A stretch of 64,000 nt of DNA from Candidatus Ryanbacteria bacterium RIFCSPHIGHO2_02_FULL_45_17b (lineage in GTDB: Bacteria > Patescibacteriota > Minisyncoccia > Ryanbacterales > 2-02-FULL-48-12): positions 71,734 to 135,733 of the forward strand of contig MHNO01000009.1 in assembly GCA_001819815.1 (NCBI GenBank), read 5' to 3'. Within the stretch, counting starts at the first letter, position 1, and each line of letters opens with the position of its first letter. A model generated the notes under the pieces. The model saw only the letters and a list, made by a program, of their open reading frames with translations, was not told the origin of the DNA and ran no database searches. The position numbers were made by a program, and so were the translations under genes. This document shows, piece by piece, positions 8,317 through 40,912 of the stretch.

Positions 8317-9789
8317 TTATTCTTCTGCCATTTTCAATACCACCCTATCTCCTGAAGATAAACCGGAAATAATTTCCACAAATCCAAGCGATGAAACCAT
8401 GCCGGTAGTAACTTTTCGTTCTTCTAATACGTCACCTTTCTTCACAGACACATATGTTGCGCCGCCGCGATTGGTTACCACGCCCTGCGGAACACTGATA
8501 ACCCCTGATTTTTGTCTCGTGGTAACAGTAATATTTGAGGTCATTCCTGTTTTTATACGCGGATCCTGTTGAGTAAATTGAAGCACGGCGCGATATGTTG
8601 AAATACCGTCACGAATGGTTTCCCCCGGGTCAATAGAAACAACCGTAGCAAAAAATACTATGTCCGCGCCATAAGCGTCGAGCACCGCTTCCGCTGGATT
8701 CCCCGCGGCAAGAAGCGCTACATGAATTTCTGGCACATAACTTTCTATCTGAAGCGTCTCACGACTTATTAAAGAAACAAGCGCCGAACCCGATAACACG
8801 CTCTCTCCCGCTCGTACATCCGCTTTTGTTATTACTCCTGAAAATGGAGCGCGTATGATGGTTTTTGCAAGCTGTGCTTGCGCTTGGGTCACTTCAGCTT
8901 GGGCAGATCGCACCCGCGCCGCTTGAGCATTTGTATCCGCCCCTGAAGCACCCGCTTTCTCAAGCGCAAGACTGCGTATATCTTTTTTTAATGTGGCGGC
9001 GGCGCTCTGTTGAGTTGTGACCGCGCTAGTCAGCGTAGAAACAGAGGTATTTATGGTGGTGCGAGCCGTCACGATAGCACTTTTCCAATCATTAATATTC
9101 GCTCTGCTCACAGATGAACTTGTCACCGCTTTGCTCAAAGCACTATCAGCATCCGCAAGCAAAACACTTACTTGCTTCAAATCATTTTGGGCAAATGCCA
9201 CCATCTGAGATACATTATTCTCAGTGATAAGAGCTATGTTGCGTTCCTTCCACTCCACAAGCACTCCTTCTATAGCCACACGCTCAGACGTAAGCGTTGT
9301 TTCCAATTGCGCGTCCGGCAGTAAAAACACAAGACTCGTGCCTGATGTTTGGGAATATGACATAAACTGATCAATTTTGTTCCGTATTGCGTCATCCGCT
9401 TTTGTATACGCGTCGCGTAAGGCGTTTTCCACGGCTTGGCGCGCTTGATCGAGCGCAATCCCATCGCTTTCTATGGATGCTTCAAGCACCGCGATTTCTT
9501 CCGGCCGCGATCCTTCTTGCAAAGAATCCAACTCCGCGCGCGCAGTCTCAACCGCCGCTTTTTTTTGAAGTACCTGCGCGTACAAATCATCATTTTCAAG
9601 CTCAGCAAGCACCGCTCCAGCCACCACATCATCACCAACTTTTGCATACATATGCCCGAGGCGTCCTGTCTGGGCAAACCCCAAATCCACACTATCTGCC
9701 GCGACAACCGTGCCAGCCAGGGCTACCTGCTGAATAAAGTCACCGGGCTCCACCACAAGCGTCTCATAGCCATTACTTTTTTCTTTCAA
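8317..9789 (-). CDS. HlyD-family periplasmic adaptor subunit (MacA-like)
   Basis: Long coiled-coil (LDSLQEG...AQAEVTQAQAQL) and a C-terminal beta-barrel. Forms an operon with the permease and ATPase. The true start is probably upstream (see finding). Confidence 0.75.
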   Translation of the reverse strand: MKEKSNGYETLVVEPGDFIQQVALAGTVVAADSVDLGFAQTGRLGHMYAKVGDDVVAGAVLAELENDDLYAQVLQKKAAVETARAELDSLQEGSRPEEIAVLEASIESDGIALDQARQAVENALRDAYTKADDAIRNKIDQFMSYSQTSGTSLVFLLPDAQLETTLTSERVAIEGVLVEWKERNIALITENNVSQMVAFAQNDLKQVSVLLADADSALSKAVTSSSVSRANINDWKSAIVTARTTINTSVSTLTSAVTTQQSAAATLKKDIRSLALEKAGASGADTNAQAARVRSAQAEVTQAQAQLAKTIIRAPFSGVITKADVRAGESVLSGSALVSLISRETLQIESYVPEIHVALLAAGNPAEAVLDAYGADIVFFATVVSIDPGETIRDGISTYRAVLQFTQQDPRIKTGMTSNITVTTRQKSGVISVPQGVVTNRGGATYVSVKKGDVLEERKVTTGMVSSLGFVEIISGLSSGDRVVLKMAEE

Positions 9790-9880
9790 GACAAAAAACC
9801 ACGTGCCTGCCCCTGCAACAAGCGCCGCGCAAACAACAAGGATTGTTTTTACGGATGATCTTATATATTTGAAAAAACTC

Positions 9881-28603: not shown

Positions 28604-31555
28604 CTAGAAAGTAACAGTCTTTTCCAACATGTTGTTATTTTCATTGGACTCACTAATAACACCATTCGGATCAATGGTTGCCTTAATGTTGTGCGATCCG
28701 GAAAGAATTTGGGGCTGAACAATAGTAACACCGCCTGCCAGACGATAATCTTTAGTCGACCAAGTGCTGACACTGTAGGTCCATTTTAACTGATCGTCTA
28801 TCCAAATATAGAGGTGTCCCGTATCAATAGGCGCATCGGCAACACCTATATTCTGAACTTTAATAGATAATTTGCCACCATCATTATAAATGTCAGAAAC
28901 AGTAAGATCGGGAAGCAGGGTAACAACCGCGTTCGACCGATAGACAACACCCGTCTGTCGATCGTTGATTGTTATGTAGACGGACTGTGGCGGATTGGAC
29001 CCTTGCAAAATGCCGAACCAAATGGTGGTAAGGTCTCGTGCTGATCCTAACGCACAAAAACCATACACATAGGCATTATTTGTAGCATTGTAGATGTTGA
29101 TCCATGTTCGGGAGGAATTGGCATTCAAACCACAAGGAGGTAGATTTGATGCTGACGTAAACATGCTGTCCGAATACGAAGACCAGTTAGTTACCGACAG
29201 GTTATACTTTACATAGGGATTGCCGTCAGAACCGGTATAATTTTGGGTGCCTGTAAAACTAAGTTGCGGGTTAGGAAGGGCTGATATTGTAAACGGCGCG
29301 TCGCTATCGTCATATGCAACATTGAGACCGGTTACTTCAACTATGCGAATTTTGTATGATCCAGTAATAATAGAAGCCTGCCCGTCAGAATATGTGTTTA
29401 CTGTCCAATTATATGATCCTGTATTTGGGACATCTACAACATTGAAAAAAGCACTTGGGATAGCGCCTGGGTTTTGATTTTGGAGCGCTATTGTCACTTT
29501 AGGAATTGAAGGAGAGGCATTCCATCTCACCTGATATGTTTGCCCTTTTTGCAACGTCTCCCCGCCATTGGGAGAAAGAACAGTGATAGAGGGTTGAGCC
29601 GTAGTTGCCGAAACAATACGAAACGGCGCGTCGCTATCGTCATGGACATATTGTTTTTCCGGAGAAATTGGGCAATTTGTATTTGGATTTGGAGCAATAG
29701 TAAAGTCCATACAAAGCATATTTATTTCATTCGGGTTATTTGAGATTCTGATTTTTTTATTTCCCATATGAACTAAATCAGGATAAACAGTAAATTCATT
29801 GCTGGTGCTTGGAAGAAACGACCCTATACCATTCGTAAGTTTATTAGCCTGAGTCCAATTACCATAAGAATCTTGTTCAAGAAAATACAGATAAAGCCGT
29901 GCATTTGGCGTAAAACCTGACAAATTCCATAAAATTTTCTGCGATGTTTTGTTTTGTGTATCAGTACCAACTTGCCATACCTCGCCGCCATTTGGAGAAA
30001 GGACTTGGATTGAAGGGCTAGTTGACGGAGAGCTAGCTACAAATACTTCTTCTGACCAACCACAGCTATTTCCTCCTGATTGCATTTTTCCATCACACAC
30101 AGCCACTTTCCAACTACTACCACTCCTTGCAGGCAAATCGGAATTCGTGACCGTATAATCAAAGTAGTAATTGGTACCGATTGAGGGACCCCCGATATAT
30201 TTGGAATACCCTTCAGTATTGCCTCCACCGCTTAGATAGACAAATGTGTCCGCAGTCGGAGAAAACGGCAACCAACTGATACGATACGTTTTCCCGACAA
30301 CCCACTGATCACCCTGTTTTGGAGAAAGAACTTGGATTGAAGAACTAGTTGTTGGACTACTTACAACAACACTGAACGGCGCGTCACTTACGTCCGAGGG
30401 TCCATCCGCATCAACAATGCGTATTTTATAATTACTTCCTGCTACCACCTTCGTATCCGTTCCTCCACTAAATTGACAGTCACTGCTCACAGAACTCCCA
30501 TCCCAATAAAGTGCTTTTTGAGTGCCAAGATCGAACTTTTTAGAGTAAATACAGCCGACAGTTCTGCCTGTTGATGCGTCTTCCAGATATATATCCATAA
30601 GAGAATCGCCTCCAGACCACCTAATCACATTATCATCTCCCATATAAAATATTTCTCCCCCGTTTGGAGAAAGAACTTGAAGTGTTGGGTTTGTGACTTC
30701 TCCACCCACATTTACAGTCAAACTTGTTTGCGCAGTTTCTACGTTAGTAGGACATGGAGTTGTAATACAACGTATTGTATTTTCGCTCGTGACATAAAAC
30801 GTAATTCTGTATATTCCAGCTTGCGCATAACTATGAGTAAATGTTGAAGTCTGTTGACCCTGAGCATATCCCGGCATACCATTCGCACCACCAGTTCCAA
30901 ATGGAGGCATTTCATCTCCCCAAGTAACCCAATACGAAAGATTCCCTCCATTTTTATCATAGGCTTTTACAACCCAAGTTCCTTGTTGATTAATATCTAA
31001 TGATTGCGGACCACTGACTCCGCTGATGATTGGAGGTCGCATAGATGATACTGGAATAGGTAGTGGTGTTGGCGTACCACACAATCCACGCATTTTTGCC
31101 CGCGTTGCTGGCCCCACTACACCGTAGCCCGTAGTATCAGGAGAACCCGAGGAGACAATACTGTGTTTCTTTTGATACCGCCGTACTGCTTGCTCGGTAA
31201 GCGGACCATAATATCCGGTGATAAGAGCCTCCGGATAGATTTCAGAATCTGCCCCAAGAATTTTTTGCAATTCCGTAACTTGCCCGCCTGTTTCGGCATC
31301 ATCCATGCCAAGATAAAAGTTATAGGTGAAACGCGGGCACAAATTAGATGCCGGGGGCACTACCGGAGAGGAAACCGGCTCTCTGTTTAACTGTTCTTGC
31401 AATGCCGTAATGTGGGCAAGCAAAGTGGTAATTTGCTGTTGAAGTTGTTCAATGGTGTGCGTGTTGGTGTGATCGGCAGATACAAAGGCAAAAGGCGTTA
31501 GTATTACACACGCCAATAAAAATAAAAACGAAATCTTCTTATATATATGTTGCAT
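28604..31555 (-). CDS. large secreted surface protein: signal peptide, PG-binding-like domain, multiple Ig-like repeats, C-terminal CARDB-like domain
   Basis: Signal peptide. GQVTELQKILG...ITGYYGPLTEQAVRRYQKKH (PG_binding_1-like). Repeated GSYKIRIV..DSDAPF modules. C-terminal DLTVSDIY...KVQNIGVADAP (CARDB-like). Inserted between atpD and atpC. Confidence 0.7.
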   Translation of the reverse strand: MQHIYKKISFLFLLACVILTPFAFVSADHTNTHTIEQLQQQITTLLAHITALQEQLNREPVSSPVVPPASNLCPRFTYNFYLGMDDAETGGQVTELQKILGADSEIYPEALITGYYGPLTEQAVRRYQKKHSIVSSGSPDTTGYGVVGPATRAKMRGLCGTPTPLPIPVSSMRPPIISGVSGPQSLDINQQGTWVVKAYDKNGGNLSYWVTWGDEMPPFGTGGANGMPGYAQGQQTSTFTHSYAQAGIYRITFYVTSENTIRCITTPCPTNVETAQTSLTVNVGGEVTNPTLQVLSPNGGEIFYMGDDNVIRWSGGDSLMDIYLEDASTGRTVGCIYSKKFDLGTQKALYWDGSSVSSDCQFSGGTDTKVVAGSNYKIRIVDADGPSDVSDAPFSVVVSSPTTSSSIQVLSPKQGDQWVVGKTYRISWLPFSPTADTFVYLSGGGNTEGYSKYIGGPSIGTNYYFDYTVTNSDLPARSGSSWKVAVCDGKMQSGGNSCGWSEEVFVASSPSTSPSIQVLSPNGGEVWQVGTDTQNKTSQKILWNLSGFTPNARLYLYFLEQDSYGNWTQANKLTNGIGSFLPSTSNEFTVYPDLVHMGNKKIRISNNPNEINMLCMDFTIAPNPNTNCPISPEKQYVHDDSDAPFRIVSATTAQPSITVLSPNGGETLQKGQTYQVRWNASPSIPKVTIALQNQNPGAIPSAFFNVVDVPNTGSYNWTVNTYSDGQASIITGSYKIRIVEVTGLNVAYDDSDAPFTISALPNPQLSFTGTQNYTGSDGNPYVKYNLSVTNWSSYSDSMFTSASNLPPCGLNANSSRTWINIYNATNNAYVYGFCALGSARDLTTIWFGILQGSNPPQSVYITINDRQTGVVYRSNAVVTLLPDLTVSDIYNDGGKLSIKVQNIGVADAPIDTGHLYIWIDDQLKWTYSVSTWSTKDYRLAGGVTIVQPQILSGSHNIKATIDPNGVISESNENNNMLEKTVTF

Positions 31556-31625: not shown

Positions 31626-33943
<2,318 letters not shown>

Positions 33944-33966
33944 AACTCTAAACTCTGAAAACTAAT

Positions 33967-34635
33967 TTATGAACCGATAATCTCTGATTTTAATTTTTTT
34001 GCCTCTTCCATAAAAAAAGTTCTCCATTCCCGCGGATCGATTTTTATAATCATGCGGGGAAAATCCTGCACACTCTCCGCTTTTATAAACTGTGTGCCAA
34101 GTTGCAAGGGATCAATATGCCAATCGAATTTTATCTTTGCTTTCTTCATTAATTCATCAATCACATAGTTTTTTTCACGGCAAATGAGATAAAGATCTAT
34201 ATAATCACGCGCAGTTGTTCTTTGATAGATAGTAAAAAGCTTATTGACAGCGATATCAAGAATACTGTCTACTGATACACTATACTCGATTCTTCCTGTT
34301 TCGATGCGTGGAAAAGGATAATACGTAAACTCTGTTTTCAATACCTCATTGCCGAAATGGATAAAAAAGATATTCCTGTTGAAGCTCTGCTGAAAATCGA
34401 TGCTATTGGCGGACACTTTTTTTTGAATCGTCCGCACTGCCACTTCAAGCGCTCCGACATCGTTTATTTCTTGTTCAGAAAAAAAATCAAGGTCTTCCGA
34501 ATAGCGATGCTTCAGGTAAAATGCCGCCAAGGGCGTGCCGCCTGTAAGATAAAAACGTTCTGTAAACAAGGGAGACTCGCCAATCGCGGTTAAAAAAGTA
34601 ATCTGATTCTTAGTGAGAATATCCATCGATATCAA
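33967..34635 (-). CDS. nucleotidyltransferase AbiEii/AbiGii toxin family protein (DUF1814)
   Basis: YLTGGTPLAAFYLKHRYSEDLDFF matches the family GGTAL..R.S.DLDF motif. Confidence 0.7.
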   Translation of the reverse strand: MISMDILTKNQITFLTAIGESPLFTERFYLTGGTPLAAFYLKHRYSEDLDFFSEQEINDVGALEVAVRTIQKKVSANSIDFQQSFNRNIFFIHFGNEVLKTEFTYYPFPRIETGRIEYSVSVDSILDIAVNKLFTIYQRTTARDYIDLYLICREKNYVIDELMKKAKIKFDWHIDPLQLGTQFIKAESVQDFPRMIIKIDPREWRTFFMEEAKKLKSEIIGS

Positions 34636-34822
34636 GAGCCAATTCTAAATATCTTTTTCGTGGAGGATCGAGATGAAGCGTATCCCAGTATTTTCGCAAT
34701 TGAGCCTCGTTGATTTTCTCGCCGTTCAACCCAAAATTAATCAATTGCTCAAGCCGCCACTTTTCGTGCCCTTCCGGGTCCGATATTTCAAACGATTGTT
34801 CGTCTACAGACCAATTGTACAT
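34610..34822 (-). CDS. small protein overlapping the AbiEii start (possible cognate partner, not a recognisable AbiEi)
   Basis: 70-aa ORF overlapping the next gene by 26 nt. Role inferred from arrangement only. Confidence 0.3.
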   Translation of the reverse strand: MYNWSVDEQSFEISDPEGHEKWRLEQLINFGLNGEKINEAQLRKYWDTLHLDPPRKRYLELALDIDGYSH

Positions 34823-35024
34823 GCTCCCATACTAGCATGTTTCGCTTAATTTTTCCAGCTTTTCGCCTTCGTAATCTGCTCGCCTCGCCAAAGCTTCAGC
34901 AAGGACGGGTCCGATGTTCCTTACGCTCTTGATGCGTCACCACCAAGGAATCAGTAAAAAAAACAAAGCTAGTATCAGATAAAATCCGATCATAATATTT
35001 TCCAATATGTTGTTTTTTTTTGCA

Positions 35025-35696
35025 TTAATCCTTAATTATGGCAATATTTTTTAAGTTTACTATGGAAATTCCGTTCTTCGTTACTGAACCATATCCATGC
35101 AACTTAAACTCCAAGACGCCCACCTTTGCTCTAATATGTGCTATAGGTACTTCTACAGGCAGATACTCGTTCCTGCTAGATACATCTCCACGGAATGTAA
35201 ACAAGAGAGTGTCCTCGAAAGATATGGTTAACCAATCCCCATCTCCCGGTTCTAGAAAATTCATGTCGAACATCAAAAGATCTGCATTTGGATGTATTTG
35301 TATATCAGTTCTTATTCCACTCTCATCTCCCGTTTGAAGAGTCGACAATAGTAAATCCCCTTCAACAGAAGCAACTGGTTTTAATGCTTCAGAAGAAGAA
35401 AAGCTTCTCCATACTATCTTATTTGAGCTCTGATCCTGTGGTTCAGTAGGTTGCTTTGAATTACTAGTCTCTAGAGGTTTTGTATTTGTTTCATCATCGG
35501 CATCTGCCATCATTCCATTATTTTTCTCCTCCATCACATCTTTCATTTGCTCTGCCATGTCAATCGCGGATGTTTCTTCGGTTGTGGGAATAAATTTATC
35601 TTTTATCGGCAACTGTATCTTGAAAACGCCGATGCCTAAAATGGCAATAATGCCGACTACAATGAGAATACCTATAAGACCGAATCCTTTTTGCAT
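35025..35696 (-). CDS. prepilin-type N-terminal domain protein (pilin-like), variant 1
   Basis: MQKGFGLIGILIVVGIIAILGIGVF is a class III (type IV pilin-like) signal, divergent at +5 (Gly instead of Glu). The first ~55 aa are near-identical to the 36600..37649 protein. Confidence 0.6.
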   Translation of the reverse strand: MQKGFGLIGILIVVGIIAILGIGVFKIQLPIKDKFIPTTEETSAIDMAEQMKDVMEEKNNGMMADADDETNTKPLETSNSKQPTEPQDQSSNKIVWRSFSSSEALKPVASVEGDLLLSTLQTGDESGIRTDIQIHPNADLLMFDMNFLEPGDGDWLTISFEDTLLFTFRGDVSSRNEYLPVEVPIAHIRAKVGVLEFKLHGYGSVTKNGISIVNLKNIAIIKD

Positions 35697-35705
35697 GGTA
35701 TGTAA

Positions 35706-36095
35706 TTAGTTTTTAATCTTATCCAATACGAACTCTTTGATGTGTGTTGCAACTTCAAACGCTTTTTGGGCATCTTCCCGGCTAAATTCTATATAATCAT
35801 CCGCGTAACGCGTTTCTGTATAAAACTGATCCAAAAATACTGCGTCTTCATTTAATTGTTCAAATGAATTATCAATAGCAACGCATGCCTTTAGTAAGTT
35901 TTCAATAGCGTGAATCTTACGAACATTCTTTTTGTTATATGCAAGAAACCCTTTGAAATACTTTTCTGCCACTTGTTGCGCGTGAAAACAGATGGTATTT
36001 GGCACGCCATGTTCTTTAAGAAGAATTTCAATGGTTCCCATGTCGTCCTCACCACGCAAAAACCAATCATTTACATATTTAGATATCTCGCTCAT
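35706..36095 (-). CDS. HEPN domain protein (PF05168-type), partner of the adjacent MNT
   Basis: FHAQQVAEKYFKGFL ... HAIENLL ... FYTETRYADDY matches the HEPN consensus. 4-nt overlap with the MNT gene. Confidence 0.75.
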   Translation of the reverse strand: MSEISKYVNDWFLRGEDDMGTIEILLKEHGVPNTICFHAQQVAEKYFKGFLAYNKKNVRKIHAIENLLKACVAIDNSFEQLNEDAVFLDQFYTETRYADDYIEFSREDAQKAFEVATHIKEFVLDKIKN

Positions 36096-36469
36096 GCCGC
36101 CACAAGCTCAGCCGGTTCATGTAACAAAGAAATATGAAAGCCGGGATTCGTATAAAGCGCCTTTCCATTATGCACAATATCTTCGAGAAAAAGATTCCTG
36201 CTTTTATTGATACTCTCTTCTAATTCACGAGGTGTATAGACAAGAACATCTATCGGAACATCGGAAGGATACATCATACTCAAAACATCTCGCTGCCGTT
36301 CGATACGTGGCTTGTTACTTTCCATAACAACGAGTAAATCTATATCGCTATCTTCGTGTGGCTTTCCCCAAGCCCAAGAACCAAAGAGAATTATTTTTTC
36401 CGGCTGATACTCACGAACGATTTTATCCTTTATTCCATTGATTTTTTCCTCAATAACCGTTTTTTCCAT
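36092..36469 (-). CDS. minimal nucleotidyltransferase (MNT) domain protein
   Basis: ILFGSWAWGKPHEDSDIDLLVV is the Pol-beta-type GS...DxD motif. Confidence 0.8.
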   Translation of the reverse strand: MEKTVIEEKINGIKDKIVREYQPEKIILFGSWAWGKPHEDSDIDLLVVMESNKPRIERQRDVLSMMYPSDVPIDVLVYTPRELEESINKSRNLFLEDIVHNGKALYTNPGFHISLLHEPAELVAA

Positions 36470-36489
36470 ATGAGAATACTATGCTATTT

Positions 36490-36582
36490 TTATCCCAAAA
36501 GAGCAAGTTCCACAACCTTTGTTATCTGCCCGATATTTTTGACACTTCGGAGCCGTTGTTTGATTGTTTGGAGAGATTGCAT
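36490..36582 (-). repeat. direct-repeat copy of the atpG 5' end (copy B), fused into a 30-codon ORF
   Basis: ~83 bp, near-identical to atpG codons 1-27 (MQSLQTIKQRLRSVKNIGQITK) starting exactly at the ATG. The sequence upstream of the ATG is unrelated. Confidence 0.8.
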
Positions 36583-36599
36583 AAATTTACACGTAACTC

Positions 36600-37649
36600 C
36601 TATAAGGAGATCCTCATAAGAGTGCCGTCTGTATATAAAAGAGCGAAACTTGGAAAATAAATAAATTGATGCCAGCCACTTGCAACCCCATCCCACTTTA
36701 GAGCTTCATTTAATCTTGCTCTGAAATCGGAAAAAAGATAATTTCCAAAATTTTCTTTAACTAGACGGCTTGCTGTCTGCCGAACATACCAGCTATAAGT
36801 GTCTGTGCCTGCCTTGAATCCAAAATCAGAGTCTTTGGGTCGATTTGTTTCTATAAATGAGTCACTTTTTTTATCCCATACATACCACTTACCACTTGCA
36901 AAAGCTTCAGGCACAATATGGAATCCCAACCCCCGGGTACCTGGAAATTCTATGTATTCAGTCGTTGTATACACATGCGTGCCGTCGGTCAAAAATTGCC
37001 CCAAACCCTCACTACTATTGTGTTTTATAGAATAGAGTTTCATATTTTTTATATCAAACCGATACACGCCTAAAATACTTGGCTCAGAATACATTTCTCC
37101 TGATTCAGCAGCACCTATAAAGAAGTTTCCTTGGAAATAAACGGCATCAAATTGTTGAAATGCTTCTCTTTTGGGCAACTCGGGTATCTGTATGAGCTGG
37201 AAAGAAAATGTATTTGTATCAAGAAGGTACAAATCTCTACCTACCGCAAGTAATGCCGTATGATCATTATCCCCTGCAAGAACAAGAACTTGCTGTTCTG
37301 AAGACCACGCATTGGGAACCGCGAGAAAACCGGGTGCTTCAGTTCGTGCCCTCCCACCCAACCATTTTTCAGAAGGATCAGATAACATGAACTTAACAAG
37401 ATTATTTCCTGCAACAGAAGGTACATCGGTAACGTCATCAGTACCAACCGCCTGACTATTTTTCTCCTCCATTACGTCTTTCATCTGCTCTGCCATGTCA
37501 ATCGCAGATTTTTCTTCGTTCGTCGGAGTAAATTTATCTTTTATCGGCAACTGTATCTTGAAAACACCGATGCCTAAAATAGCGATAATACCGACTACAA
37601 TGAGTATTCCGATAAGACCGAATCCTTTTTGCATGGTATATTTTTGCAT
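36600..37649 (-). CDS. prepilin-type N-terminal domain protein (pilin-like), variant 2 with a different C-terminal domain
   Basis: Same N-terminal ~55 aa as variant 1 (the start may be the internal MQKGFGL). C-terminal 290 aa unrelated to variant 1. Confidence 0.6.
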   Translation of the reverse strand: MQKYTMQKGFGLIGILIVVGIIAILGIGVFKIQLPIKDKFTPTNEEKSAIDMAEQMKDVMEEKNSQAVGTDDVTDVPSVAGNNLVKFMLSDPSEKWLGGRARTEAPGFLAVPNAWSSEQQVLVLAGDNDHTALLAVGRDLYLLDTNTFSFQLIQIPELPKREAFQQFDAVYFQGNFFIGAAESGEMYSEPSILGVYRFDIKNMKLYSIKHNSSEGLGQFLTDGTHVYTTTEYIEFPGTRGLGFHIVPEAFASGKWYVWDKKSDSFIETNRPKDSDFGFKAGTDTYSWYVRQTASRLVKENFGNYLFSDFRARLNEALKWDGVASGWHQFIYFPSFALLYTDGTLMRISL

Positions 37650-37678
37650 GTGTTTATATTACCTTTGATAGAATAATT

Positions 37679-38149
37679 TTATTCATCTGAGGATACGGTA
37701 AAAATTGTCTTTTGCACATCGCGGGCATGCGGCGTATTACTACCAAGAAGCGCGCTTTGACGCATCGCTTCTTCAAAAATAACTGTATGGGTATCAAAAA
37801 TGCCTTCTCGCCCAAGTACACGCGGAGCATTCTCACTGTTGAGAAATGCAACAGGTAATCGGAAAGCGTATGATCCCATTTTTACTGGAATTTCGTGACG
37901 CCAAGCGCGAATGCTCTTCCCATCTATGCCAAATATACGCAAGAGCTTTCCTTTTGTAAGATCAATACCAAGAAGAGGCGCAATATTCTTCGGCAGTGCA
38001 GAAATGGTCGCCCCGGAATCAATCAACATCATTACAGGCAATTCTTCCTTTTGCGCGGTATGTAAGACAACCCTCGCCGCGGGGAAAATTGCGATCTGTC
38101 CCGATACTTCCATTGTTATCCCATATGGAAATCGAATGGAGTTAGACAT
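37679..38149 (-). CDS. retropepsin-like (clan AA) aspartic protease
   Basis: MMLIDSGATISALP contains the D-S-G-A catalytic motif in a hydrophobic context. Size ~150 aa, typical of single-lobe retropepsins. Confidence 0.6.
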   Translation of the reverse strand: MSNSIRFPYGITMEVSGQIAIFPAARVVLHTAQKEELPVMMLIDSGATISALPKNIAPLLGIDLTKGKLLRIFGIDGKSIRAWRHEIPVKMGSYAFRLPVAFLNSENAPRVLGREGIFDTHTVIFEEAMRQSALLGSNTPHARDVQKTIFTVSSDE

Positions 38150-38348
38150 GGTAAATGACCATTAAACTCTCCGGGACACGCAGAAATGTTACCTCCCGAA
38201 GCGGTTGCGCCGGCATTTTTTTCTTTAGAATTTTTATGACATCAGGAAGTGATTTGCCCGCAAAAATAACTTTACCATTCAAAATGGCGACCTCTTTACC
38301 GCCATACTTTTTTATGTCTATAGTGGGAATCTTTAATTTCATATTCAT
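38142..38348 (-). CDS. small protein (DUF5678-like) co-encoded with the retropepsin-like protease
   Basis: 68 aa, KKYGGKEVAILNGKVIFAGKSL. Overlaps the protease gene start by 8 nt. Family call tentative. Confidence 0.4.
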   Translation of the reverse strand: MNMKLKIPTIDIKKYGGKEVAILNGKVIFAGKSLPDVIKILKKKMPAQPLREVTFLRVPESLMVIYHV

Positions 38349-38589
38349 ATCATCATCTCTTACTCCTAAAGAGATTATTCTTCGCTTTTCCTATGTCTGT
38401 TTCACTAATCTGCACCCTTTTCCCAATGCCCTTAAGCGAAACAGGAGCTGTCGAAAATTGTTTTGATCCTTTTTTCAATTTCAAAAGTTCCTTTTCTAAC
38501 CCCCCCCAATTTTTCCACATATGTAGTTGTAGAATTTGCCATTGTAGTCATAAGCCCATAGTATGCTTTTCTCACATAGTTTTCAAGTA

Positions 38590-38674
38590 TCACTACCAAT
38601 TCCATGGCTTTTGTTATCTGCCCAATATTTTTGACACTTCGGAGCCGATGTTTAATTGTTTGAAGGGATTGCAT
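38590..38674 (-). repeat. direct-repeat copy of the atpG 5' end (copy C), fused to 53 unrelated codons
   Basis: ~85 bp matching atpG from the ATG through MELV (codon 27). ORF 38432..38674 then diverges. Confidence 0.8.
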
Positions 38675-38714
38675 AATATTTGATTGTTAGGTACTGAAAT
38701 CTAGAAACTAGAAA

Positions 38715-39344
38715 TTAGTTGATGAACTTGAAAGTAGAGAGGATAGTTTGTATCAGCCTTTCCTGCTCTGGATATTCTAAAAAACCCTGATGAGCTCTTA
38801 TTGCTTCGTGACGCGCAGATGAACTATGGGCAAAGTAAATAAAACCGTTATTGTTCGGCTCTTCTAGATAGTAATTTGTAAGAATATCATATTCGTCATA
38901 ATTAATTTTAGAAGTCTTAAATATATTTGATCCAATAGCTAAATCACTTAATGGAGCTGATGTTCCACTCATCGGCCTCTTTGTATGTGGCATTATTACC
39001 ATACGTAAATTATAAATCTTAGCCGCATCTTTATTTATTCTATAAACAGGACTTGCTGTGTCATAAACTATATAATTTGACACGGCGATAAAAGACGAGC
39101 CGTCTTCCAAAACAAACCCCGCGGGATACCTCACCTCAAACCCATACTTCTCATTCCGATATGTTTTCCAGTTTTGTATTTTATCCTGATTATTTGTAGC
39201 AAATTCTAATCTTACATCATTCCATGGGGTATGATTATACCGATAGATTAAATAACCAAGAAAGCTTACAGCTACGACAACAATGACGCAAGATACAATA
39301 AAAATAACACGCAAATATTTATTCATAACACATTTTAGTCCCAC
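38715..39344 (-). CDS. hypothetical membrane-anchored protein
   Basis: N-terminal TM helix (VIFIVSCVIVVVAVSFLGYLIY), then a ~170-aa soluble domain. Confidence 0.4.
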   Translation of the reverse strand: MGLKCVMNKYLRVIFIVSCVIVVVAVSFLGYLIYRYNHTPWNDVRLEFATNNQDKIQNWKTYRNEKYGFEVRYPAGFVLEDGSSFIAVSNYIVYDTASPVYRINKDAAKIYNLRMVIMPHTKRPMSGTSAPLSDLAIGSNIFKTSKINYDEYDILTNYYLEEPNNNGFIYFAHSSSARHEAIRAHQGFLEYPEQERLIQTILSTFKFIN

Positions 39345-39361
39345 AATTCCACATTCTAGAT

Positions 39362-40912
39362 CTATGGAAATCTATAAGAATCAATAAATTTCTGAATCAC
39401 TTCTTTGAGTGTTTTCTCAATCTCTTCATCAATTGCTTTCTTTTCCCGCAGAGGAGCAAGTAAATCCGCTTCGTGGAATTTTTCGAGATATTCCGTAAAC
39501 TCCGCTTCAAATTTTTGAATATCTTCAGGTTTTATGTCTTTAAGGTATCCATTGATAGCCGCATAAAACAACACTACCTGGCGCTCAAACGGAACCGGTG
39601 ATAAATCGGATTGTTTCAAAAGCTCGGTCATAACACGGCCTTCTTGAATGCGTTTTTTTGTCTCATCATCCACATCCGACGCAAACTGCACAAACGACTG
39701 CAATTCACGAAACTGCGCGAGGGTAAGACGGAGCTTACCCGCAACTTTTTTCATGGCTTTAGTCTGTGCGGTAGACCCCACGCGCGAAACCGAAAGCCCC
39801 GCGTTGATTGCCGGGCGCATGCCTTTGTTGAATAAATCCGCCTCCAAATAAATTTGCCCGTCGGTTATAGAAATTACATTTGTGGGCACATATGCCGTAA
39901 CATCACCCAGTTGCGTTTCAATAATAGGAAGCGCAGTTAGAGAACCACCGCCCTTTTCTTTGGAAAGCTTTGCCGAACGCTCCAACAACCGCGAATGCAA
40001 ATAAAATACGTCCCCGGGATACGCCTCGCGCCCCGGCGGCCGGCGCAAGAGCAATGAAATTTGGCGATAGGCTGATGCGTGTTTTGAAAGATCGTCATAA
40101 ATAACCACCGCGTCTTTTCCGTTATTGCGAAAATATTCTCCGATTGCGCACCCCGCAAACGGCGCTAAGTACCAAAACGCCGCGCTCGAAGACGCGGGAG
40201 CCGAAACCACAACCGTATACCCCATGGCGCCCTGTTCTTTCAACGTTTCCACCATGCGGGCAACTTTGGATTCTTTCTGCCCAATAGCCACGTAAATACA
40301 AACGGGCGGTTCCCCCTCTTCTTTTTGCTGGTTTACAATAACATCAAGCGCGATGGCGGTTTTGCCGGTTTGACGATCGCCAATGATAAGTTCGCGCTGA
40401 CCGCGGCCAATAGGGATCATAGCATCAATGGCTTTGATGCCCGTGTGCAGAGGCGTATTTACCGACTCGCGATCCACCACGGACGGCGCTTGCTCCTCCA
40501 AAAACATTCGCTGTCTCAAAGATGTGTCTGATTTCCCTGAAAAAAGCGGCCCCTTTCCATCCATGGGGTTTCCCAATGGATCAACCACGCGCCCCAAAAT
40601 TTCGGGTCCCACTTCAACCGAAAGGATTGTGCCCGTAGTTCGCACCGCATCTCCGCTTTGAATGCCTTTGTACTCACCGAGCACCAACGCGCCGATGGTT
40701 TCTTCGCCCAAGTTTAACGCAAGCGCCATGCGTTCGCTGCCTTCACGCGCTTCTACGCGCAACAGCTCCTGACTTACAGCGTTTCGTAATCCGGATACTT
40801 TTAAAATACCGTCTCCCACTTCGATAACTTCACCTGCATCTTCCCATTTCGACTCATCATGAAAGTCTGCTATTTCGCGTTTTAATTTTTCTATAAGTTC
40901 GTAAGACATCAC
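39362..40912 (-). CDS. atpA: F0F1 ATP synthase subunit alpha
   Basis: [13 protein letters not shown]-loop. 516 aa. Confidence 0.95.

Follow-up and report, generated by a model that had tools for sequence, protein, structure and literature searches.

How did the ATP synthase operon of a Candidatus Ryanbacteria genome come to be split between atpA and atpG, and what built the array of accessory genes between them? We addressed this in a 64,000-nucleotide stretch of DNA (the window). The source habitat of the genome is groundwater. The sequence-only reading had put the interruption at about 5.4 kb; it measures 5,418 bp (39361-33944), on the minus strand, and consists of stacked accessory units marked by remnants of the atpG start. 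G+C is 33-43% in the insert versus 45-54% in the atp genes, and the 64-kb window holds no tRNA. The intact atpG encodes a 314-aa product with the Pfam ATP-synt domain. The features, all on the minus strand and given from upstream to downstream, are listed below; L numbers denote the atpA-atpG loci fetched for comparison.

42807-39362, minus: atpB-E-F-H-A, from the ORF listing
39362..40912, minus: atpA (F1 alpha), the upstream edge of the array; ORF, and the identical L001 gene matches Pfam ATP-synt_ab families
38715..39344, minus: PsbP_2-like membrane-anchored protein with 'WKTYRNEKYGF...TFKF' motifs (Pfam PsbP_2 E = 6e-5, below the cut-off)
38595..38676, minus: atpG 5' scar C, from -2 to about +80, with the native-type upstream spacer kept
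38558..38586, minus: promoter-like site TTGAAA-17-TACTAT, directly 3' of scar C, with 6 nt between it and the ATG at 38551, a leaderless layout
38353..38551, minus: antitoxin-like small gene (family 7), frameshifted at a G8 run (38507-38500)
37679..38348, minus: DUF5678 small protein (38142-38348) and retropepsin-like aspartyl protease (37679-38149), by Pfam
36600..37649, minus: pilin-like gene 2, N-terminus MQKGFGLIGILIV from the ATG at 37634; orthologue in L090
36503..36584, minus: atpG 5' scar B
36470..36506, minus: leader of the MNT-HEPN module with predicted promoter (CTTGCTCTTTTGGGATAAAAATAGCATAGTATTCTCAT), whose TTG is atpG codon 27
35706..36469, minus: MNT (36092-36469) and HEPN (35706-36095), a predicted toxin-antitoxin pair, by Pfam
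35519..35701, minus: conserved 5' end of pilin-like gene 1; partner copy at 37457-37639 (183 nt, 91%)
35025..35696, minus: pilin-like gene 1, from ORF, repeat and family clustering
34855..34936, minus: degraded atpG 5' scar A (34936-34909 is atpG nt 28-55; 34879-34855 is nt 57-81)
33967..34858, minus: promoter-like CTGGAA-18-TAGTAT (34858-34829), small partner gene (34610-34822) and AbiEii-family nucleotidyltransferase (33967-34635), by Pfam
32999..33945, minus: intact atpG including 2 nt before the ATG (ORF 33943-32999); its first ~80-95 nt are the repeated segment
32981-31626, minus: atpD, downstream of atpG, from the ORF listing

A repeat search recovered one direct-repeat family with three 82-nt copies, namely the true atpG start (33864-33945), scar B and scar C. 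Similarity begins 2 nt ahead of each ATG, and each partial copy runs on into non-atpG sequence. Within the 64 kb, a 32-nt core pattern matched at these three sites alone, against an expectation of 0 (100 shuffles). The copies had been described as exact through about codon 27; alignment to the true start gives 94% identity for scar C and 89% for scar B (97% over its first 65 nt), the latter matching well to about nt 66 and partially from there to nt 80. The proposed short ORFs do exist, scar B opening one of 30 codons and scar C one of 80. Two features add to that earlier account. One is scar A, which lies just upstream of the AbiEii partner gene, has its halves separated by a 29-nt insert, and bears an L010-like allele (RIKSVK) unlike the resident RLRSVK. 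The other is the 183-nt repeat of the pilin-like 5' ends, a second homology stretch between cassettes. Division of the insert into repeat-separated units was thus borne out, except that the block nearest atpG, taken as one unit, is made two by scar A.

Could the repeats have misled the assembly? With metagenomic data, repeats of 82 and 183 nt might have strung together strain variants of atpA-atpG through a shared atpG start. Against this, contigs of seven or more samples and assemblies show the same arrangement gap-free and 98.5-100% identical, and different assemblers and samples agree on the 20.9-kb arrangement with 100% identity. The 82-nt repeats are also shorter than the final k-mer of 141 (implied by k141 contig names) and merely 89-94% identical, and the partial copies continue into other sequence. 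We give an artefact practically no chance: the gap and the scars are real, and the array is fixed within the species.

We next consider what the units carry. Pfam matches above curated cut-offs identified AbiEii (69.3 bits; cut-off 22.5), HEPN (83.1; 22), NTP_transf_2/MNT (46.3; 21), the gag-type aspartyl protease (30 bits) and DUF5678 (25 bits), confirming most of the cargo named from sequence. AbiEii and HEPN-MNT each have a two-gene layout with overlapping or abutting genes, as predicted toxin-antitoxin modules; the MNT also gave an NCBIfam MntA-like match, below cut-off. The AbiEii stretch is homologous to L010 3046-3978. The DUF5678-protease pair, a weak PADLOC candidate match (PDC-M52B), occupies the same locus in L012 and L177, and the family-7 homologue pairs with a PIN toxin in L092 and L010. 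A type IV pilin assignment did not hold up. Such a pilin would show an N_methyl domain scoring above cut-off and a prepilin motif of the form G|F(T/S)LIE, Glu5 included; here N_methyl scored 16.8 bits against 21.2, and the motif is G|FGLIG, lacking Glu5, so that our label 'pilin-like' covers the signal-anchor alone. The PsbP_2-like protein clusters with the pilin-like genes (family 0), and is probably both a member of that family and the ancestral neighbour of atpG.

The units share a plan in which a scar is followed by a predicted sigma-70-like promoter, a two-gene toxin-antitoxin-like module and a pilin-like gene. This plan holds in the window, L092, L090, L094/L174, L010, L171, L012 and L015, with MNT-HEPN, PIN plus small partner, AbiEii plus small partner, or DUF5678 plus aspartyl protease as the module. 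It had been suggested that the repeats may carry a promoter. A promoter-like site does occur at each repeat, but it lies just 3' of the repeat, where it would drive the cargo. The layout at 38558..38586 recurs at scar c3 of L092, and the MNT-HEPN leader, near-identical in L092, L090, L094 and L015, may act as a promoter. Promoter and toxin activity are both predictions from the sequence.

The check on relatives proposed earlier proved informative, revealing empty sites and cassettes that vary in number, content and order. The atpA-atpG distance is at most 130 nt in 90 of 129 Paceibacteria loci, and L096, with an AtpG identity of 63%, has a gap of 16 nt. Close relatives carry from zero to three atpG-start scars, beside cassettes that differ in content and order; the family-7 and MNT cassettes stand in opposite order in the window and in L092. 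L012, L015 and L171 retain the 3' end of the PsbP_2-like gene and the spacer ahead of scar C; a conserved spacer is what one would expect if this atpA-proximal scar was the original gene start. In L024/L124 and L143 the scars are mirror images, derived from the 3' end of atpA and adjacent to cargo. These comparisons support the view that the gap is a stack of serially added units, each addition leaving a duplicated atpG 5' fragment, as the sequence-only reading had it.

Several observations support movement of cassettes between genomes. A 2.05-kb block shared by L090 (1330-3379) and L094 (598-2647) shows 100% identity, against about 78% for the atpG and atpD genes of the two loci; the transfer is therefore recent. 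On its left the block stops within the final 8 nt of the atpG fragment or where that fragment meets the cassette, a position (within ~8 nt) where a site-specific event would look alike. On its right, identity drops from 94% to 76% inside the HEPN gene, so that the block comprises 1.6 cassettes, no whole number. Two independent contigs, L175 and L176, tie the closing 141-155 nt of this block to the two different atpG alleles, the link running through the diverged HEPN 3' end and different pilin-like genes. Foreign alleles are also present in scars: scar c2 of L090 is 92% identical to L094 atpG and 80% to its own, and in L115 and L159 the scars bear the clade-common allele and the intact gene start is the divergent one. 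Finally, the atpG of L091 is a mosaic, 99.4-100% identical to L094 in its 3' part and downstream, with no fetched locus above 83-87% over its first ~500 nt and no match among fetched loci for the 177 nt upstream; all the evidence comes from metagenome contigs, and mosaics such as L005 and L091 could be chimeric assemblies.

Two other histories have to be weighed against these data. The units might have arisen purely locally, by ancient tandem duplication of toxin-antitoxin module, pilin gene and atpG start that diverged in place. Their common plan, the 91% identity of the pilin-like 5' ends, a cargo divergence between the window and L092 close to that of core genes (82-83%) and fixation within the species all fit such a history. 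Yet the cargo families of the units are unrelated, cassette order varies and empty sites occur among relatives, and the shared 2.05-kb block and the foreign alleles in scars speak against a history without transfer between genomes. The varying cassette number and the shared block likewise favour mobility over the fixed ancient duplication once named as the refuting outcome. Local evolution is contradicted as a complete explanation, and we think it very improbable, but the very first scar might have arisen in this way.

Serial site-specific integration deserves more weight, and we rate it as unlikely rather than negligible. The enzyme would be a tyrosine or serine recombinase, supplied from another part of the genome or by a transient element, that uses an attachment site in the atpG 5' end. 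The inserts would be small non-autonomous cassettes with an attP-like atpG start, and the process would resemble that of islands at dusA or prfC, of tycheposons or of integron cassettes. Each unit is indeed flanked by direct repeats of the target, the intact gene is restored, the array grows at one site, and the recently shared block begins at a cassette junction. The nt 80-81 junction, used by four cargo types and each time at the TTG of atpG codon 27, looks site-like and speaks against an integrase-free reading; inheritance of the junction together with selection for a working -35 box might account for it. Scar ends, however, are spread over nt 18, 40, 50, 51, 55, 62, 70, 73, 80-81 and ~89-95 in the window and relatives, and differ even for the same cargo, MNT-HEPN being joined at nt 80, 51 or 40, or without a scar. 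We found no hairpin or inverted-repeat core in the scars, whose folding was close to that of shuffled sequence (z = -0.83, -0.85, -0.14 and +1.05). As the sequence-only reading had noted, no integrase is visible: Pfam detected no recombinase domain in the cargo and 40 other ORFs spread over the 64-kb window, the genes called in arrays L001-L005, L171 and L174-L177 included no recombinase either, and about 25 cassettes in about 10 arrays contained neither such a gene nor a remnant. The attP-like copies suggested as a check were absent from viral contigs in two exact-pattern scans. The end of the shared block inside HEPN, an atpG mosaic reaching well past the repeat and the atpA 3' scars of other lineages also argue against this mechanism. 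A site-specific integrase is thus not supported, and neither is the tycheposon-like attachment proposed earlier, although a recombinase might conceivably act in trans.

Comparison with known integrase-driven systems leads the same way. SXT/R391 is an island that integrates into the 5' end of a protein gene, prfC, and restores that gene. Islands associated with dusA set a further precedent, targeting a conserved-gene 5' end, supplying a new start and duplicating a target fragment (PMC4482086). The flanking target repeats and restored gene of such islands are present at atpG, but dusA and prfC islands carry their own tyrosine integrase beside the att site and use one fixed crossover, whereas at atpG we found no adjacent integrase and no fixed crossover or att core, the junctions being variable. 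Prochlorococcus tycheposon/tRNA-fragment islands resemble the array in that a single site receives one insertion after another and older material moves inward, in their scattered partial target copies, in their defence or niche cargo and in their streamlined host genome; their defining features are hallmark replication genes, a site-specific integrase peculiar to the lineage, and targets that are mostly tRNAs (bioRxiv 10.1101/2020.12.28.424599). Neither recombinase nor replication genes were found here, and the window lacks a tRNA. Integron arrays also have small co-oriented cassettes with a repeated element between them. Toxin-antitoxin cassettes are common in chromosomal integrons. The atpG array shows no intI, attI or attC-type hairpin; its borders are atpA and atpG, and its repeats are plain coding-sequence copies.

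We therefore favour, at about even confidence, sequential displacement without an integrase, in which recombination is anchored in the conserved 5' end of atpG. Between these genomes atpG is best conserved over its first 100 nt (72-92%, versus 50-82% in nt 100-650), which makes this stretch the obvious homology anchor. Our model starts from the order atpA, one pilin-like or PsbP-like gene, atpG. Incoming DNA from the homologous locus of another Ryanbacteria genome would bring a self-promoted toxin-antitoxin-like module, a pilin-like gene, a spacer and an atpG start. One side of it would recombine homologously, in the gene body of atpG or in its conserved 5' region, and the other would be joined illegitimately to the resident atpG somewhere in the first ~20-95 nt of that gene. 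The outcome would be equivalent if a circle, excised between two scars, went back in through one crossover in the 5' segment of atpG. The old atpG start would be pushed upstream as a dead scar, while the essential gene would remain whole because the incoming DNA supplies its own start. Repeated rounds would stack units of scar, promoter, toxin-antitoxin pair and pilin-like gene, and later homologous recombination and gene conversion at scars, pilin-like 5' ends and homologous cargo could swap, reorder, delete or homogenise them. Junctions that vary, and the mirrored scars from the 3' end of atpA, would fit an illegitimate joint at the non-homologous end; each scar would then have a one-sided origin, illegitimate plus homologous.

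The closest known cases are Rhs/CDI loci, with their 'C-terminal displacement' and orphan toxin tips, and the T6SS effector-immunity arrays of Vibrio cholerae (Kirchberger et al. 2017, PMC5361080). There, as we propose for atpG, part of a conserved gene is the anchor, modules from other strains displace a variable end that is kept as an orphan, and repetition yields heterogeneous arrays with no integrase. The atpG array has the corresponding marks: a conserved 5' anchor, scars retained as orphans, foreign alleles and a fully identical shared block. The same model, combining homology-facilitated illegitimate with ordinary homologous recombination, was put forward for the Vibrio arrays and Rhs loci, the former process being rare where measured (PMC5361080). 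The geometry is mirrored, in that at atpG a 5' end would be displaced and the orphans would accumulate upstream. Its anchor is an essential housekeeping gene of the ATP synthase operon rather than a polymorphic toxin gene, its orphans are atpG fragments of no evident function rather than useful immunity genes, and its cargo, unlike theirs, comprises toxin-antitoxin-like modules and pilin-like proteins. Neisseria minimal mobile elements (PMC3787668, PMC1797815) similarly place differing cassettes between the same conserved genes without an integrase, exchanged by homologous recombination of the flanks following DNA uptake, but they replace one another and lack the duplicated flank fragments and tandem stacks of the atpG array.

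Patescibacteria are reported to retain homologous-recombination and comEC/pilus DNA-uptake genes (PMC12455944), and DNA uptake is a plausible route of transfer. Our model suggests that cassettes would be exchanged within and between Ryanbacteria species, probably following such uptake, and that inside an essential operon the cargo may benefit from read-through expression and from shelter against deletion.

The ATP synthase operon of the window is split between atpA and atpG, which the ORF map places 5,418 bp apart, as the sequence-only reading had described. The genes lie as follows, with the atp genes taken from ORF calling:

42807-42055, minus strand: atpB
42011-41784, minus strand: atpE
41780-41277, minus strand: atpF
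41280-40909, minus strand: atpH
40912-39362, minus strand: atpA
33943-32999, minus strand: atpG, intact
32981-31626, minus strand: atpD
31555-28604, minus strand: surface-protein gene (983 aa), between atpD and atpC
28595-28350, minus strand: atpC

The G+C content of the insert is 33-43%, compared with 45-54% for the atp genes. On the minus strand, atpA is followed by a PsbP-like gene and then by three units, each headed by a scar, that is, a partial copy of the atpG 5' end. The scar C unit holds a frameshifted antitoxin-like gene, DUF5678 with a protease, and pilin-like gene 2; the scar B unit holds a nucleotidyltransferase/HEPN (MNT-HEPN) pair and then pilin-like gene 1; the scar A unit holds a small partner gene and AbiEii, after which comes the intact atpG. 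The gap would then comprise three units and one ancestral gene, the PsbP-like gene next to atpA. Among the cargo, AbiEii, HEPN, MNT, the retropepsin-like protease and DUF5678 were confirmed by Pfam; the pilin and PsbP_2 signals of the three membrane-anchored proteins remained below threshold. The same arrangement is present without gaps in ENA and JGI contigs from at least seven samples, matching along as much as 20.9 kb at 98.5-100% identity; it is not an assembly artefact.

One JGI contig (L005; L-numbers denote fetched related loci or contigs with their own coordinates) matches the window at 100% throughout the array and atpG, but is 13% diverged from it starting at the first atpD codon (L005 7334-8238, window 32981-32077), where it is 96.5% identical to L176. 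This contig is either a true recombinant or chimeric. The 983-aa surface protein (28604-31555, minus strand), a second interruption of the operon, carries PG_binding_1, Kre9_KNH, CARDB and PKD domains. A homologue lies between atpD and atpC in L012 and L177; in L176 (80% AtpG identity) atpD directly adjoins atpC, without the surface-protein gene. No duplicated atpC start was seen at this interruption.

A repeat search of the window returned one family with three 82-nt direct copies:

33864-33945, minus strand: true atpG start
36503-36584, minus strand: scar B, 89% identity
38595-38676, minus strand: scar C, 94% identity

A 32-nt core of the atpG start has exactly three matches in the 64 kb and none in 100 shuffles. 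In the aligned copies, identity starts 2 nt ahead of each ATG. The copies had been described as exact, which the alignment contradicts (89% and 94%); copy B is 97% identical over the first 65 nt and then decays. Scar A is a degraded fourth copy, located upstream of the small partner gene of AbiEii and preserved in two pieces, 34936-34909 (atpG nt 28-55) and 34879-34855 (nt 57-81), separated by 29 nt. It is homologous to the scar-plus-promoter ahead of the same AbiEii module in the related locus L010, and its allele is L010-like (CGC ATC AAG AGC GTA, RIKSV) where the resident one reads CGG CTC CGA AGT GTC (RLRSV), with differences at 10 of 28 positions. A second repeat, of 183 nt, is shared by the 5' ends of the two pilin-like genes (35519-35701 and 37457-37639, 91%). 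Between the compared genomes, atpG is best conserved over its first 100 nt (72-92%, versus 50-82% at nt 100-650), and the scar length of ~80-95 nt corresponds to the extent of this stretch.

Between pilin-like gene 1 and scar A lies an 18-codon hydrophobic mini-ORF (MIGFYLILALFFLLIPWW; 34937-34993, minus strand), which stands in place of the first 27 nt of the scar.

Directly 3' of every window scar is a predicted sigma-70-like promoter, and the first ATG of the cargo lies 6 nt past it, a leaderless layout:

38586-38558, minus strand: predicted promoter after scar C, TTGAAA-17-TACTAT
After scar B: predicted promoter, 37-nt leader, near-invariant in five genomes
After scar A: predicted promoter, CTGGAA-18-TAGTAT

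In the MNT-HEPN, AbiEii and one PIN (toxin domain) cassette, atpG codon 27 supplies the TTG of the -35 box. These scar-adjacent sites would act as promoters. Homologues of MNT with at least 75% identity lie in atp arrays (L170, L171); a 65% homologue adjoins PNPase at another locus, and therefore the cargo families are not locus-specific. This homologue led us to reject a restriction of the cargo to the atp locus.

The antitoxin-like gene after scar C is frameshifted by a G8 run (38500-38507, minus strand), so that its N-terminal part is in frame with the 80-codon AtpG' ORF. An intact homologue (L092 8681-8878) precedes a PIN toxin that the window lacks. The 'pilin-like' proteins (35025-35696, 36600-37649 and 38715-39344, minus strand) carry a G|FGLIG signal-anchor that lacks the Glu5 found in true type IV pilins, and they have in common a C-terminal domain with WKTYRNEEYGF...TFKF, a domain very common at the atpA-atpG locus in relatives. 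The family is variable.

Some relatives carry an element of ~97 nt with 14-bp terminal inverted repeats (ATCCCGTTAGAAGT / ACTTCTAACGGGAT) at atpG nt 22, with a DNA hairpin z of -3.2:

L171 4708-4808: inverted-repeat element, in the true atpG
L090 1199-1299: inverted-repeat element
L092 6947-7047: inverted-repeat element
L019 6460-6581: relative of the element

In L171 it lies within a functional atpG, which gains a new in-frame start (MQTSNGIKRR...) from the right end of the element; the L092 copy is inverted. L094, whose cassette sequence immediately downstream matches L090 at 100%, lacks the element. The L019 relative has the same ends and sits exactly at the atpH start, with TGAA duplicated. 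The element may be MITE-like or invertible.

We compared 160 fetched loci around AtpG homologues (GTDB species representatives and JGI metagenomes). Among the 129 with both genes, the atpA-atpG gap is at most 130 nt in 90, 130-1000 nt in 23 and larger in 16, so the empty state is the norm; L096 (63% AtpG identity) has a 16-nt gap. Empty sites and a variable number and content of scars, the outcome that a mobile array had been expected to give in related genomes, were thus both found. The closest relatives (58-82% AtpG identity) carry arrays on the same plan with other contents:

L092: three scars; PIN, MNT-HEPN and PIN modules, a pilin-like gene after each; gap 5,351 nt
L090 and L094/L174: two scars each
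L010: two scars; AbiEii then PIN
L015: two scars
L171: one scar; two nucleotidyltransferase-type toxin-antitoxin-like (TA) pairs
L012 and L177: 17-nt remnant; DUF5678-protease pair
L011/L095: no scar; MNT-HEPN and pilin-like gene

The cassettes of MNT and of family 7 (antitoxin-like small genes) stand in opposite order in the window and L092. A spacer of TTTCYAG repeats at the scar nearest atpA is common to the window, L012, L015 and L171, as expected if that scar is the original atpG start. Variation in cassette presence within populations, which had been suggested as a check, was not seen in the window's own species: all contigs with identical AtpG carry the same array, and turnover is therefore slower than strain divergence. 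In distant Paceibacteria, partial atpG starts stand beside quite different selfish genes, and the junctions differ too. Mirror-image scars also occur, with a second copy of the final 62-64 nt of atpA lying downstream of the inserted cargo:

L024/L124 8553-8614 and 9606-9667: atpA 3' scars
L143 2492-2554 and 3109-3171: atpA 3' scars

These atpA scars belong to Staskawiczbacteria-like genomes, where the cargo consists of a zinc-ribbon ORF and an NYN-domain gene. In L115 (457-794), L120 (61-398) and L159 (9610-9938), a gene for a GIY-YIG nuclease separates a 66-70-nt atpG-start scar from atpG. An NYN-domain gene has the first nine AtpG codons (MESPQNIKK) fused in frame in L071 (4065-4604) and L078 (4598-5137). 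Elsewhere the atpA-atpG gap is occupied by different small accessory ORFs, one of them a conserved opposite-strand ORF of ~130 aa. ARAGORN called a 73-nt tRNA-Ser(TGA) on the opposite strand between scar and atpG in L145 (199-271, minus strand), and a similar sequence occurs in L024 (~9730-9830); Rfam gave no match at the gathering threshold on L145 and L115. A tRNA as integration target was rejected, as the window and arrays contain none.

Movement between genomes is visible in a block of 2.05 kb that is 100% identical between L090 (1330-3379) and L094 (598-2647), whose atpG/atpD are only ~78% identical. Its left end is in the last 8 nt of a scar or at the scar-cargo junction, and it spans a PIN module, a pilin-like gene, the next scar and MNT, 1.6 cassettes in all, before identity falls from 94% to 76% inside HEPN. 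An end within a homologous gene is what homologous crossover would give. Two independent k141 contigs, L175 and L176, begin 141-155 nt ahead of the divergence point, and each runs into a different one of the two atpG alleles; regardless of how the contigs are linked in detail, then, both genomes carry the shared block. Such identity in two co-occurring species indicates that exchange is ongoing. Non-resident alleles are frequent in scars: L090 scar c2 is 92% identical to L094 atpG versus 80% to its own, and L092 scar c1 is nearer to the window atpG than to its own. The L091 atpG is mosaic, with 99.4-100% identity to L094 in its 3' part and downstream, no fetched locus above 83-87% over its first ~500 nt, and no match among the fetched loci for the 177 nt upstream. 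In L115 and L159 the scar has the clade-common allele and the intact atpG start a divergent one, a pattern that fits an incoming segment with its own gene start.

The scar, allele and transfer data appear to agree with a sequential displacement without an integrase. Donor DNA, the homologous locus of another genome, would cross over by homology, either in the conserved 5' region of atpG or in the body of the gene, and would form an illegitimate joint a few dozen nt into the resident atpG. The resident start would stay as a scar, and the incoming start would complete atpG. Alternatively, a circle excised between two scars might re-insert by one crossover, with the same product and the junction preserved. 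Scars, pilin 5' ends and homologous cargo would later recombine homologously and undergo gene conversion with one another, which would explain the shuffling, the identical block, and scars that are 89-97% resident-like versus cargo ~17% different between genomes. We infer the illegitimate joint, the transfer route, and the activity of promoters and toxins. The same logic has been proposed for Vibrio cholerae T6SS effector-immunity arrays and Rhs C-terminal displacement (PMC5361080), and Patescibacteria are reported to keep recombination and comEC/pilus uptake genes (PMC12455944).

Serial site-specific integration, as first proposed, would instead require a trans-acting recombinase at the atpG start, which we consider unlikely. 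The junction at nt 80-81, at the TTG of codon 27, recurs and argues for site preference; we keep this rival because the recurrence is explained no further than by an inherited junction or -35-box selection. However, scar end points are scattered (nt 18, 40, 50, 51, 55, 62, 70, 73, 80-81 and ~89-95), even among scars with the same cargo type. As the sequence-only reading had noted, no integrase is visible: a Pfam search of 50 ORFs across the whole window, the cargo and 40 others, yielded housekeeping and cargo families only, with 7 ORFs unmatched at E <= 1e-4; a tyrosine or serine recombinase would not have escaped this search. The called genes of other arrays contain no recombinase either. Folded as single-stranded DNA, the true repeat (both strands) and scars B and C (sense strand) did no better than shuffles, and an integron-type attC structure was rejected. 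Exact-pattern scans of viral contigs matched neither the atpG-start core nor the MNT junction, and a phage or plasmid carrier was likewise rejected. The atpA 3' scars, the different selfish genes and junctions in distant lineages, and the alleles of L115/L159 also speak against a recombinase acting at the atpG start.

Quite improbable, in our judgement, is a broader version in which the atpG 5' end is a dedicated Paceibacteria-wide landing pad, where a trans-acting recombination system, possibly tied to the codon-27 TTG or the nt-22 inverted-repeat element, inserts selfish modules with their own promoters (TA pairs, GIY-YIG and NYN nucleases) and rebuilds atpG. If true, a protein-coding gene start would be the recombination site of an integron-like cassette system.

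Sequential displacement resembles Rhs/CDI/T6SS displacement arrays in its working, but here the geometry is mirrored and the target is an essential housekeeping gene inside an operon. The dusA/prfC-type 5' integrators and tycheposon arrays are alike in outcome only (target duplicated, gene restored, insertions stacked); they are defined by an integrase, which the atpG array lacks, and it has no integron hallmark. Neisseria minimal mobile elements share integrase-free core-gene exchange, to which the atpG array adds duplication and stacking.

Candidate Phyla Radiation (CPR) bacteria have tiny genomes with few recognisable mobile elements. We found no prior description in the literature of atp-operon cassette arrays or islands in these bacteria, and the atpG locus offers a concrete, repeatable case of accessory-gene acquisition and exchange. 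Where Patescibacteria MAGs show short 'AtpG-like' ORFs or interrupted atp operons, these are genuine features, not annotation errors. An essential, highly expressed operon would be a safe harbour; the portable homology arm would be the 100 nt of atpG that are most conserved, and the dead gene-start scars would be a record of successive acquisitions. If the integrase-free model is true, N-terminal displacement of a housekeeping gene would extend the Rhs/T6SS principle to core operons, and gene-end scars may mark such hotspots in any metagenome.
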